Of a DNA stretch of 64,000 nt, positions 25,057-42,391 are shown one piece after another. Every line of letters begins with the position of its first letter. The stretch's first letter is position 1. Location: assembly GCA_021463485.1 (NCBI GenBank), contig JAJTYJ010000002.1:108638-172637 (forward strand), written 5' to 3'. The translations under genes and the position numbers were made by a program. Source of the DNA: a bacterium. GTDB lineage: Bacteria; Patescibacteriota; UBA1384; 2-12-FULL-50-11. The notes under the pieces were generated by a model that saw nothing but the letters and a program-made list of their open reading frames with translations, had not been told where the DNA came from and did not search any database.

Positions 25057-26505
25057 TGAGAGTTTGATCCTGGCTCAGGATTAATGCTGGCGGCGTGCCT
25101 AATACATGCAAGTCGAATGGGTTTAGACCCATGGCGAACGGGTGAGTAACGCGTAGGAAGCTGCTCCGAAGTCTGGGATAACCCACCGAAAGGCGAGATA
25201 ACACCGGATATGCCGCAAGGTGAAAGTTTACGCTTCGGAAGGCGCCTGCGTCCTATCAGCTTGTTGGTGAGGTAACGGCTCACCAAGGCTATGACGGGTA
25301 ACTGGTCTGAGAGGACGACCAGTCACAGTGGGACTGAGACACGGCCCACACTCCTACGGGAGGCAGCAGTAGGGAATCGTCGGCAATGGGCGAAAGCCTG
25401 ACCGCGCGACGCCGCGTGGAGGAAGAAGGCCTTCGGGTTGTAAACTTCTTTTATGGGGGACGATTATGACGGTACCCCACGAATAAGGGCCTGCTAACTA
25501 CGTGCCAGCAGCAGCGGTAATACGTAGGGCCCGAGCATTATCCGGAATTACTGGGCGTAAAGAGCGTGTAGGTGTTCGTACAAGTTGGTCGTTAAATCTC
25601 ACCGCCTAACGGTGAGGCCGCGAGCAAAACTGTACGAATTGAGGTTTGCAGGGGCTAGCAGAATTTCTGGAGTAGGGGTGAAATCCGTTGATACCAGAAG
25701 GAATACCAATGGCGAAGGCAGCTAGCTGGGCAATACCTGACACTGAGACGCGAAAGCGTGGGGAGCAAACGGGATTAGATACCCCGGTAGTCCACGCCGT
25801 AAACTCTGTCAACTAGCAATAGGGAGAGTCGACCCTCTCTGTTGCGAAGCTAACGCGTCAAGTTGACCGCCTGGGAAGTACGATCGCAAGATTAAAACTC
25901 AAAGGAATTGGCGGGGGCTCGCACAAGTGGTGGAGCATGTGGTTTAATTCGACAATAACCGAGGAACCTTATCCAGGGCTTGACATCTTGGGAATCTCTC
26001 AGAAACGAGAGAGTGCCGCAAGGAGCCCAAAGACAGGTGCTGCACGGTCGTCGTCAGTTCGTGGCGTGAGCTGTGAGGTTAAGTCCTTGAACGAACGAAA
26101 CCCTCGTCCTATGTTGTATGTTCATAGGAGACAGCCCTGGTAACAGGGAGGAAGGCGGGGATGACGTCAGATCCGCGTGGCCTTTATGCCCTGGGCAACA
26201 CACGTGCTACAATCCGTCCTACAAAGGGTTGCCAAACCGTAAGGTGGAGCTAATCCCAGAAAAGGTCGGTAAGTTCGGATTGAGGGCTGCAACTCGCCCT
26301 CATGAAGCCGGAATCACTAGTAATCGTGGATCAGCATGCCACGGTGAATACGTTCTCGAGCCTTGCACACACCGCCCGTCAAGTTGGCCGAGTCGGTAAC
26401 ACCAGAAGCGTCGGGATTACCCGGCACCAAGGTGGGATCGGTAAGGAAAGCTAAGTCGTAACAAGGTATCCGTAGGGGAATCTGCGGATGGATCACCTCC
26501 TTTCT
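25057..26505 (+). rRNA. rrs: 16S ribosomal RNA
   Basis: 5' end is agagtttgatcctggctcag. Conserved blocks are present (actcctacgggaggcagcag, gtgccagcagc(a)gcggtaatac, the 1390 region tgcacacaccgcccgtca). The 3' end is ggatcacctcctttct. Length is about 1450 nt. Confidence 0.95.
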
Positions 26506-26596
26506 AGAGGAATCTAGATGTCGACTCCGATCTATATCGGAGAGATGCTACCAATATAGGTAGCGAAAACGTTCTTGTAACCGCAAAGTGTTTGAA

Positions 26597-26627
26597 AACA
26601 AAAAAGAGGCTAAAGCCTCTTTTTTGT
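26597..26627. terminator. Bidirectional intrinsic terminator between the convergent 16S and tRNA genes
   Basis: A-run, hairpin agaggc-taa-gcctct, T-run. Confidence 0.55.
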
Positions 26628-26637
26628 TGCATATTCG

Positions 26638-26836
26638 TGGGCGATACTGGACTCGAACCAGTGACCTCGTCATTATACGCTGAGCGAACCGTTCAAATTT
26701 TGTCTGTGCGCGTACCTGGACTCGAACCAGGGACCTCGTCATTATCAGTGACGCGCTCTAACCAGCTGAGCTATACGCGCAAGGACAAAATTTGAATGTA
26801 TCAGTGACGCGCTCTAACCAGCTGAGCTAATCGCCC
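26638..26836 (-). tRNA. Split/intron-containing tRNA-Ile(GAU)-like gene: 5' exon 26798-26836, 125-nt insertion 26673-26797 at position 37/38, 3' exon 26638-26672
   Basis: 5' part is GGGCGAT-T-AGCTCAGCTGGTTAGAGC-G-CGTCA-CTGATA. 3' part is A-TGACG-AGGTC-ACTGG-TTCGAGT-CCAGT-ATCGCCC-A. The acceptor pair (GGGCGAT/ATCGCCC) and the T-stem pair (ACTGG/CCAGT) are perfectly complementary to each other and differ from those of the nested gene. The insertion holds the complete tRNA-Ile above, bracketed by the inverted repeat TTCAAATTTTGTC / GACAAAATTTGAA. Confidence 0.5.
26707..26780 (-). tRNA. tRNA-Ile (anticodon GAU), complete 74 nt, nested inside the interruption of a second tRNA-Ile gene
   Basis: Minus-strand cloverleaf: acceptor GCGCGTA/TACGCGC, D-arm TAGCTCAGCTGGTTAGAGC, anticodon stem-loop CGTCA-CTGATAA-TGACG, T-arm CCTGG-TTCGAGT-CCAGG. 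No encoded CCA. Confidence 0.85.
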
Positions 26837-41838: not shown

Positions 41839-41945
41839 TTTTCTGCGCGTAATTTCTACGCAGGAAAGAAGGAACGTCGCCTGAATTGTCTTCGACTTTG
41901 GTTTGGAAACCACAACAATATAACGTTCTCGGATGGAGGTGAGCT

Positions 41946-42188
41946 ATGGCGAAGTATATCGTGAAATGCTCAGCATTAGACAACCAACACAAATCCAAGC
42001 GGGTGAACAGCCCGGAATTCGACGCGAAAAACGATGCCGATGCGATCAAGCTCGCCGGCGGTCATGTTGACGCATTAATCTCCGAACACTCACTCACCGA
42101 TGGTCAGTACAAGGTCTATCGCTGTAAGCGACTGTTCTCATCGGAGAAATGTATTGCCGAGGGTCCGATCACCCCTCAGCGCTACTAG
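41946..42188 (+). CDS. Hypothetical small protein (80 aa) encoded in the 23S-5S spacer
   Basis: Strong SD GGAGGTG lies 5 nt before the ATG. The ORF ends 85 nt before 5S. There is no TM helix. Sequence is MAKYIVKCSALDNQHKSKRVNSPEFDAKNDADAIKLAGGHVD…. Confidence 0.4.
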   Translation: MAKYIVKCSALDNQHKSKRVNSPEFDAKNDADAIKLAGGHVDALISEHSLTDGQYKVYRCKRLFSSEKCIAEGPITPQRY

Positions 42189-42272
42189 ACCTACCTCGGC
42201 GAGCTCGCTCGCCACTCTATCCGAGCACGTTATAGTGAGATCTGTAATTGAAGTTAAGCGTTTGAACTTTTT

Positions 42273-42391
42273 ATCTTGGTGTCTCGAGCGACAGGGGTAC
42301 ACCTCTTCCCATTTCGAACAGAGAAGTTAAGCCTGCCAGCGCCGATGATACTCAGGGCTAACAGCCCTCGGGAAAGTAGGCCGACGCCAAG
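42273..42391 (+). rRNA. rrf: 5S ribosomal RNA
   Basis: The terminal helix pairs tcttggtgtc with gacgccaaga. Internal blocks cccatttcgaacagagaagttaagcc and cgccgatgatact match the 5S consensus. Length is about 119 nt. Confidence 0.85.

Follow-up and report, generated by a model that had tools for sequence, protein, structure and literature searches.

Unlinked 16S and 23S-5S ribosomal RNA genes, a gene-filled spacer and a nested tRNA-Ile in a member of the Patescibacteriota

Bacterial 16S and 23S ribosomal RNA (rRNA) genes more than 1,500 bp apart are classed as unlinked by Brewer et al. (bioRxiv 10.1101/705046), who place the Patescibacteria among the clades with exclusively unlinked rRNA genes. 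In oral Saccharibacteria, according to Murugkar et al. 2020 (PMC7651992), the 16S-23S interval of the 'operon' usually houses one to five protein genes along with tRNA-Ala, tRNA-Ile and tRNA-Val. Here we describe the rRNA locus of a 64,000-nucleotide stretch of a patescibacterial genome (assembly GCA_021463485.1, contig JAJTYJ010000002.1, positions 108,638 to 172,637; the whole stretch is called the window, and positions are counted from its first letter), where 16S is parted from 23S and 5S by 12,394 nt full of protein genes, and where the tRNA-Ile gene sits inside the halves of another tRNA-Ile. The unlinked layout is already known for Patescibacteria and Saccharibacteria, and the window is one more instance of it. 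With the unlinked set of Brewer et al. it shares a 16S-23S distance above 1,500 bp, 23S and 5S kept together, and a small-genome symbiotic lineage; nothing essential differs, that paper being without spacer gene content and tRNA arrangement. With the oral Saccharibacteria (PMC7651992) it shares tRNA-Ala(TGC), tRNA-Ile(GAT) and variously oriented protein genes in the spacer, whereas its protein genes number about 15, tRNA-Val and the open reading frame (ORF) of 79 amino acids (aa) are absent, and tRNA-Ile is inverted and nested. The split loci of Thermus/Deinococcus, Rickettsiales, Helicobacter and Dehalococcoidia also have a 16S transcribed apart with its own processing stems, as we propose here; their spacer tRNAs, however, are usually dispersed or lost, whilst the window keeps the ancestral tRNA order.

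The 16S gene (25052-26503, plus strand) is full-length and intact (Rfam, 1450 bits, model positions 1-1533), just as it had looked in the initial annotation of this DNA. The 23S gene (38898-41835, plus) covers the full Rfam model without a large insertion, the 5S gene lies at 42275-42392 (plus), and Rfam finds one copy of each in the 64 kb. The initial annotation had put the end of 16S at 26505 and the start of 23S near 38890, which is right within a few bases, and its central claim, that a gene-filled spacer of 12.4 kb unlinks 16S from 23S-5S, is borne out by Rfam and the ORFs. Its placement of the two tRNAs holds as well. The tRNA-Ile(GAU) is on the minus strand at 26707-26780 (ARAGORN, 26706-26780, and Rfam; 73.6 bits), about 200 nt past 16S, and tRNA-Ala(UGC) is on the plus strand at 32274-32347 (ARAGORN and Rfam), whilst ARAGORN finds no tRNA-Val (TAC) in the window. 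The order 16S, 23S, 5S on the plus strand is that of the canonical bacterial rrn operon. The short internal spacer of that operon, with tRNAs only, is not what is found here, where about 15 ORFs (six on the opposite strand) fill the interval, a terminator palindrome follows 16S and 23S has a promoter-like and boxA-like block of its own.

We consider it roughly 85% probable that the window shows the rRNA locus in the form usual for a Saccharibacterium, i.e., for a member of the Candidate Phyla Radiation (CPR), and that the spacer of an ancestral 16S-tRNAIle-tRNAAla-23S-5S operon was filled with housekeeping genes long before the present lineage arose. The genes that filled it would have been those of the cell wall (MurB, YkuD), of nucleotide metabolism and repair (dCTP deaminase, dUTPase, Fpg) and others. 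The order 16S, tRNA-Ile, tRNA-Ala, 23S, 5S has been retained and fits an ancestral operon with a gene-filled spacer.

The evidence comes from relatives. The window 16S carries CPR-type signatures, and in the collection of species-representative genomes the only relative found is a metagenome-assembled genome labelled uncultured Candidatus Saccharibacteria (L002; L numbers are our labels for contigs and loci), with a dCTP deaminase 73% identical. Further relative contigs were reached via MurB homologues. Identity to the window 16S is 95% in L005 and L002, 92% in L069, 90% in L003 and L067, 88% in L007 and 77% in L068, the range over the relatives with the window's gene order, L066 among them, being 88-96%. 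L002 runs from the 16S end through tRNA-Ile, VTT, NAGPA, MurB and tRNA-Ala to the 23S start, over a spacer of 13.9 kb, that of L005 being 11.1 kb. The gene order is the same as in the window, including the ClpP and trigger factor genes upstream, in L003, L007, L066, L067 (a complete 769-kb genome, CP066697.1) and L069, and the order common to the relatives is 16S, tRNA-Ile, VTT/NAGPA/MurB/YkuD, tRNA-Ala, Fpg, dUTPase, 23S. Both tRNA-Ala(TGC) and tRNA-Ile(GAT), together with protein genes, lie in the 16S-23S interval of the window, L002, L003, L005, L007 and L067, and in L068 the two rRNA genes are about 13 kb apart with MurB in between. With one gene order kept as far out as 88% 16S identity, and MurB even at 77%, the spacer must have been filled long ago and handed down since. 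Operon linkage compared across related genomes, as had been suggested at the outset, shows the unlinked order to be shared among them.

The orientation of tRNA-Ile is the sole layout feature that varies between lineages: it shares the strand of 16S in L002, L003, L005, L007, L067 and L069, whereas the window, L066 and L044 have it on the opposite one. An operon broken by insertions and an inversion, as the locus was initially read, is reasonable as deep history, but it is not an event of this genome. The 'rearranged' tRNA-Ile is indeed inverted relative to most relatives, but it is more than an inversion, being a nested pair of genes. As to what the layout means, it is a reminder that these taxa escape long-amplicon methods running from 16S through the internal transcribed spacer to 23S, and that such cells would have to balance small- against large-subunit rRNA without co-transcribing them. 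The relatives' rRNA genes themselves carry large insertions with LAGLIDADG-type ORFs (L007 at about 8030-8800, near the 16S 3′ end; L005 at 20314-20877; L068; L069). The 16S and 23S of the window have none of these.

Some 15 plausible protein genes can be counted in the spacer, so that the many genes reported initially are there, although their number had been given as fourteen; six are on the minus strand and eight have no Pfam family. Next to tRNA-Ile comes a VTT-domain protein (27002-27583, plus), followed by a NAGPA/CarboxypepD_reg protein (27580-28995, minus), MurB (29039-29974, plus) and a YkuD L,D-transpeptidase (29971-30495, plus), all four assigned by Pfam and present in relatives as well. 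Four small ORFs without a family (30620-32122, plus) precede tRNA-Ala. Beyond it lie a dCTP deaminase-like gene (32384-33388, minus; Pfam E-value 4e-33), ORFs at 33589-34038 (minus) and 34171-35007 (plus), Fpg (35015-35896, minus; Pfam), ORFs at 35961-37136 and 37264-38088 (both minus) and a dUTPase (38083-38604, plus; Pfam). Public gene calling of the identical Logan contig misses the dCTP deaminase-like gene and lists two short ORFs on the opposite strand in its place. The interval between 16S and tRNA-Ile is free of ORFs in the window. In L002 it holds a 79-aa ORF (14550-14789, minus) with no Pfam family, which the window lacks and which agrees in position and size with the '79 aa protein' that serves to mark species among oral Saccharibacteria (PMC7651992).

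Judging by their signals, 16S and 23S-5S look like separate transcription units. A first unit would comprise 16S alone. It has a promoter-like site upstream (24648-24676, plus; TTGACG-17-TACAAT, a match to 10 of the 12 consensus positions), a boxA-like antitermination motif, TGCTGCTTTAACAAG, in its leader (24690-24704, plus), a processing stem formed by a leader arm (24752-24773, plus) and a trailer arm (26571-26592, plus; 22 nt, 91% complementary), and a predicted bidirectional intrinsic terminator (26597-26628, both strands). The latter, a perfect 15-bp palindrome between A and T runs, starts five bases past the trailer arm and sits between 16S and tRNA-Ile, where the initial annotation had placed it. 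The leader motif, YTTAACAA, which resembles E. coli boxA (TGCTCTTTAACAA), has six sites in 128 kb (both strands of the window), two of them within the two rRNA leaders. The trailer motif TTCTTGyAACCGCnAAGTGTTT is kept in L002, L003, L005 and L007. In a 21-nt hairpin (25023-25066, 95% complementary), the terminal leader bases are paired with ~15 nt at the 5′ end of mature 16S, and L005 and L003 have a similar one. A second unit would be the minus-strand tRNA-Ile, with a weak promoter-like site (26936-26964, minus; TGGATA-17-TACAAT, 9 of 12 matches), ending at the same bidirectional terminator as 16S; a third would hold the protein genes plus tRNA-Ala.

The fourth unit would be 23S-5S. Upstream of 23S there is a promoter-like site (38633-38662, plus; TTGACG-18-GACAAT with TG, 9 of 12 matches), then a hairpin (GCCGC..GCGGTTTTTT) with a U run followed by the boxA-like CTTAACAACTAGG (38738-38790, plus), then the 23S leader arm (38789-38817, plus), which pairs with the trailer arm at 41883-41911 (plus; 29 nt, 90% complementary). 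The whole block, i.e., TTGAC(G/A), hairpin with U run, CTTAACAACTAGG and leader arm, is conserved in L002 and L005, the −35 element reading TTGACA in L002. The 5S gene has its own stem with 23-nt arms (42261-42405, plus; arms 42261-42283 and 42383-42405) and is followed by a predicted terminator hairpin (42408-42433, plus). Another stem with 23-nt arms (41916-42237, plus) surrounds an 80-aa ORF (41946-42188) in the 440-nt 23S-5S spacer. This ORF has a strong Shine-Dalgarno sequence and no Pfam family. Kinship with the LAGLIDADG ORF that occupies this position in L005 was considered and rejected, the two being unrelated.

Several points weigh against this account of the locus. The separation of the units, the promoters and the terminators are read from sequence signals; promoter-like hexamers are indeed present upstream of 16S and of 23S, as put forward initially (for 23S, a TTGACG near 38625), but promoter-like and terminator-like matches per region are no more frequent than in shuffled sequence, so that the promoter-like hexamers are weak evidence alone. 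CPR promoters are in general poorly known. The hairpin with U run between the 23S promoter-like site and 23S could be a terminator instead of a boxB-like element. Finally, rRNA copies were counted within 64 kb, and a second, linked rrn copy may lie elsewhere in the genome. Even so, with six spacer genes and tRNA-Ile on the opposite strand, and with signals of their own, separate units are the most economical reading.

The alternative in which 16S, the spacer genes and 23S-5S form a single giant operon, transcribed together from the 16S promoter by an antiterminated polymerase, with the 'terminator' serving as a processing hairpin, would agree with the plus strand being common to all the rRNAs, to tRNA-Ala and to roughly half the spacer genes, and with the boxA-like motif of the 16S leader. 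We regard it as very unlikely in view of the perfect palindrome directly past the 16S trailer stem, of the opposite-strand genes just mentioned, and of the conserved promoter-like block and boxA-like motif that 23S has for itself. A recent disruption, i.e., a mobile element or genomic island that entered an intact rrn operon of this genome or its immediate ancestor, is highly improbable. Such an island might well look like the spacer, with its 12.4 kb, its genes on both strands and its ORFs without a family, but relatives down to 88% 16S identity have the same housekeeping genes in the same order. Pfam, applied to all spacer ORFs and to the window's other ORFs of 110 aa or more, except the 2201-aa ORF 11818-18423 and the ORF 62296-63600, gives no integrase, transposase or phage family. 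In 2-kb bins the GC content of the spacer is 0.47-0.56, overlapping the 0.43-0.50 seen elsewhere in the window; a single bin is higher, at 0.56. A mobile-element origin of the spacer was accordingly rejected, the scanned ORFs having given housekeeping families only. That 16S and 23S were misjoined to a single-copy region in assembly is hardly credible, for although rRNA genes and repeated tRNA halves do break short-read assemblies (Logan contig L001 stops exactly at the repeats), the same arrangement is found in independent assemblies of other samples, among them the complete genome L067 and the contigs of L002 and L005, which reach from the end of 16S across the spacer into 23S.

The tRNA-Ile of this locus has three sets of described analogues. 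Group I introns in the tRNAs of Patescibacteria (mSystems 2026, PMC13011429) are likewise insertions in the anticodon loop of CPR tRNA genes; the insertions described here are, in contrast, about 120-190 nt long, have no group I core and consist mainly of a second complete tRNA. Also, tRNA-Ile(GAU) is not reported among the intron-bearing tRNAs (PMC13011429). The disrupted tRNAs of archaea (PMC4033280, PMC4390854) resemble ours in the 37/38 site, in halves joined by a complementary helix and in a functional RNA inside, and differ in that the host here is bacterial, no bulge-helix-bulge was found in the predicted folds, the guest is of the same isoacceptor and the outer layers decay. Attachment (att) sites of integrases, miniature inverted-repeat transposable elements (MITEs) and palindrome-associated transposable elements (PATEs) of the IS200-IS605 type share site specificity, a short repeat at the junctions (here ATA) and hairpins near the ends. 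However, integrase att sites duplicate the 3′ part of a gene only, whereas here the halves of the target stand on either side of a complete replacement gene, the 5′ half before it and the 3′ half behind, and Pfam finds no Phage_integrase or other recombinase family among the scanned ORFs near it. Compared with a MITE or PATE, the constant 3-nt ATA and the hairpins are present, but the end sequences differ between lineages and the element is single-copy in the window.

A repeat finder brings out the architecture, which we call a nest: a complete tRNA-Ile flanked by a complementary stem sits in the anticodon loop of a second, split tRNA-Ile. Read along the minus strand, the outer 5′ half, GGGCGATTAGCTCAGCTGGTTAGAGCGCGTCACTGATA (GGGCGAT ... 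CTGATA; 26836-26799), is 94% identical to the inner gene and is followed by an 18-nt linker (26798-26781) with the 5′ arm of the stem, H1 (26784-26796). The inner tRNA-Ile(GAU) (26780-26707) comes next, then a linker with the 3′ arm of H1 (26706-26677; arm 26692-26704) and the outer 3′ half, ATAATGACGAGGTCACTGGTTCGAGTCCAGTATCGCCCA (26676-26638), which consists of ATAA, the 3′ strand of the anticodon stem, the T arm, the ATCGCCC acceptor strand and the discriminator A, and is 88% identical to the inner gene. The direct repeats 26637-26676/26706-26745 and 26743-26778/26799-26834 correspond to the outer halves against the inner gene. Of the inverted repeats, 26692-26714/26774-26796 joins H1 to the inner acceptor stem (23 nt paired, 91% complementary) and 26636-26645/26830-26839 is the outer acceptor. 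Joined at the anticodon loop, the outer halves make a perfect tRNA-Ile(GAU) that ARAGORN calls a tRNA and in which 21 of 21 stem pairs form. The two acceptor stems differ and yet both pair fully (outer GGGCGAT/ATCGCCC, inner GCGCGTA/TACGCGC), and the same is true of the T stems. The insertion measures 122 nt, mostly tRNA, and no second copy of this cassette was found in the window. Two short hairpins that start with the outer acceptor sequence (GGGCGATT...) stand at 26848-26895 (minus; repeat finder). A repeat family for the hairpin motif ATTGCGAAGCAAC was considered and rejected, its count in the window not exceeding chance.

The same architecture, with linkers that are unrelated between loci yet mutually complementary, is found in L002 (14190-14430, minus), L005 (7490-7865, with three layers), L066 (700-925, minus) and L067 (7406-7600). 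A scan of metagenomes gave 57 loci in which a 5′ half is followed, after 15-45 nt, by the 5′ part of a full gene, metagenome nests being found among L009-L065; a dozen are complete, and L053 has three layers. In most of the metagenome loci with a nearby 16S, this gene is about 70-78% identical to that of the window, so these are other CPR lineages; in all, at least 12 other CPR lineages have the architecture, with up to three layers. The junction is constant in the 12 of 12 curated nests (CTGATA/N ... N/ATAA plus stem, the slash marking the boundary), at positions 37/38 and with a 3-nt ATA overlap, and the insertions are about 120-190 nt long. Thermodynamic prediction folds the insert into a three-way junction of the outer anticodon stem, H1 capped by the inner tRNA, and a hairpin, H2. 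Over 10 curated nests, 210 of 210 stem pairs are kept in the inner genes and 207 of 210 in the first outer layers. The duplex between leader and trailer of tRNA-Ile averages −12.4 kcal/mol against −8.2 in cross-locus controls, with no such excess for tRNA-Ala and tRNA-Cys of the same loci. Duplicated halves are seen in none of the 55 other tRNAs in these loci, and a search of viral contigs for the nest gave 0 matches.

The nest is reproducible and widespread, and we found no description of it in the literature searched, which, as regards nested, split or intron-containing tRNA genes of CPR, yielded only group I introns in other tRNAs. Its nature, approached here through comparison of sequences, is probably that of a gene replaced in place: the outer halves would be the former resident tRNA-Ile and the inner unit its replacement, the inner gene being the working one and the outer a relic. 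On this account a resident tRNA-Ile would have been cut in the anticodon loop, at positions 37/38 with the 3-nt ATA overlap, and the cut filled by a cassette of about 120 nt carrying a tRNA-Ile(GAU) allele flanked by a complementary stem. Repeated invasions would leave layers of decaying halves in the manner of a Russian doll. As tRNA-Ile(GAU) is probably an essential gene present once per genome, an insertion into it would survive only by supplying a copy of its own.

A DNA insertion that leaves a relic is favoured because of an empty and a filled site, of decay outwards, and of fast turnover that does not follow the host tree. The closest pair, L003 and L067, have 16S genes 95.6% identical. 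By mismatch counts, the sole, uninterrupted tRNA-Ile of L003 differs at 1 nt from the outer, interrupted tRNA-Ile of L067 and at 7 nt from the inner one (MAFFT aligned the L003 gene to the inner copy and does not display the insertion). Un-nested tRNA-Ile genes without such stems occur in L003, L007, L069 and L068. Outermost layers are the most degenerate (L053, L005, L066), with lost stems, hairpin insertions in the D- and T-loops and mismatched halves; the broken outer genes include the 5′ half of L066, without an anticodon stem, the mismatched halves of L051, L060 and L061, and the L043 family, without a T arm. As to turnover, the window, L005 and L002, at 95% 16S identity, have no nest layer in common, yet the inner allele of the window recurs unchanged as the sole tRNA-Ile of L069, at 92%; one metagenome family has the same outer 5′ half and flank around three different inner modules.

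On the other side, the pattern used for the metagenomes was built to find this very architecture, so that the 57 loci give no frequency; no recombinase, transposase or nuclease for the insertion is seen by Pfam in the scanned ORFs of the 64 kb; and many outer genes are still perfect tRNAs, which recent insertion explains, and continued function equally.

A step further, and tentatively, since we would put it at somewhat less than an even chance, the nest could be an undescribed mobile cassette of CPR, 120-190 nt long and composed of stem, tRNA-Ile(GAU), return strand and hairpin, that inserts precisely in the resident anticodon loop, takes over the function and spreads between lineages, moved by an enzyme acting in trans. 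The inner allele of the window is identical to the sole tRNA-Ile of L069, whose 16S is just 92% identical, which suggests spread between lineages. The mover would be a single-strand transposase, a recombinase or a homing nuclease. One may speculate that single-strand transposition of the IS200/IS605 type fits the tiny size, the end hairpins, the constant orientation and the ATA repeat; a site-specific homing nuclease, with recombination after the cut, is equally a speculation and fits just as well. A mobile replacement cassette, if real, would be a new way to invade and overwrite an essential single-copy gene, and a new marker of horizontal exchange among CPR. A bolder variant has the outer genes spliced, as a new type of bacterial tRNA intron, in which case it would be the first in bacteria that is neither group I nor group II. 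Whichever applies, nests cause annotation errors, as the halves go unannotated and the exact repeats break assemblies, and they should be relevant to specialists of tRNA and of mobile elements.

The outer halves and stems might instead be an RNA scaffold, a long composite helix that aids the processing or stability of the inner tRNA. This would suit the pairing of H1, kept in spite of unrelated sequence between loci, the L043 family, which retains acceptor and anticodon-stem pairing without a T arm, and L066, where H1 and H2 are intact around a degenerate outer tRNA. We find it doubtful, however, as the close relatives L003, L007, L069 and L068 manage with an un-nested, stemless tRNA-Ile, and as nests are wholly different between genomes whose 16S are 95% identical, which fits turnover better than conserved function.

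It is unlikely, to a higher degree, that the outer gene is a functional tRNA-Ile with an intron, RNase P and RNase Z freeing the inner tRNA whilst the outer halves are trimmed and ligated. The break is always at 37/38, where introns canonically lie, stem pairing is complete in many outer genes despite their differences from the inner gene, and the insert is predicted to form the conserved three-way junction of outer anticodon stem, H1 with inner tRNA, and H2. Against this, the nest has no group I core and no other Rfam ribozyme (no Intron_gpI match at E-values up to 1 in other loci and up to 5 in the window), predicted folds of the anticodon-, T- and D-loop insertions contain no bulge-helix-bulge, and several outer genes are clearly broken (those named above, and those with T- or D-loop insertions). 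By thermodynamic prediction the junctions are three-way, with single-stranded junction strands, and not of the 3-4-3 bulge-helix-bulge form. To our knowledge no protein-dependent splicing of tRNA is known in bacteria, nor do we know of a splicing endonuclease in bacterial hosts such as that of the nest; neither a splicing endonuclease nor a ligase is seen among the scanned ORFs of the 64-kb window. Known RNA families and ribozymes were also tried as candidates for the nest, and Rfam at permissive E-values gave only tRNA and its antisense echo. The loop CUGAUAA resembles CUGAUGA of the hammerhead ribozyme, but a hammerhead was rejected, since the nest lacks both the essential G and a GAAA strand and has no such match in Rfam.

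A few smaller features were seen in these loci. Outer, probably relic, halves repeatedly carry an insert of ~25 nt with two hairpins at the same T-loop position (TTCG/CTTGCGnAGCA..., in L002 at ~14215-14270, minus; L005 at ~7805-7860; L066 at ~740-800, minus), and in other CPR lineages they carry a GC-rich hairpin at one constant D-loop position (GGTTA/.../GAGC; L012, L018, L025, L026, L027, L045 and L057). Just past the 16S of L003, at 5412-5494, a 14-bp stem encloses a tRNA-like sequence of 83 nt whose anticodon loop measures 16 nt (ARAGORN 'Pro agg'), and a second module with a similar stem follows at ~5640-6000.

The remaining genes of the window are of housekeeping type (Pfam): glycolysis, trigger factor, ClpP, RecO, Alr and the dcw cell-wall cluster. 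A second FAD_binding_4 ORF (58891-59886, plus) occupies the place of MurB in this cluster and may be a paralogue of the spacer MurB. Upstream of tRNA-Ala, the window has a mini-helix (32158-32203, plus) whose first 15 nt repeat the start of the tRNA itself, and a mini-helix precedes tRNA-Ala in 5 of 5 Saccharibacteria loci examined. One to three of them occur (L002, L003, L005 with three copies, L007, L057), each a tRNA copy of ~14 nt closed by a complementary acceptor strand, and the copies track each genome's own tRNA-Ala acceptor sequence.

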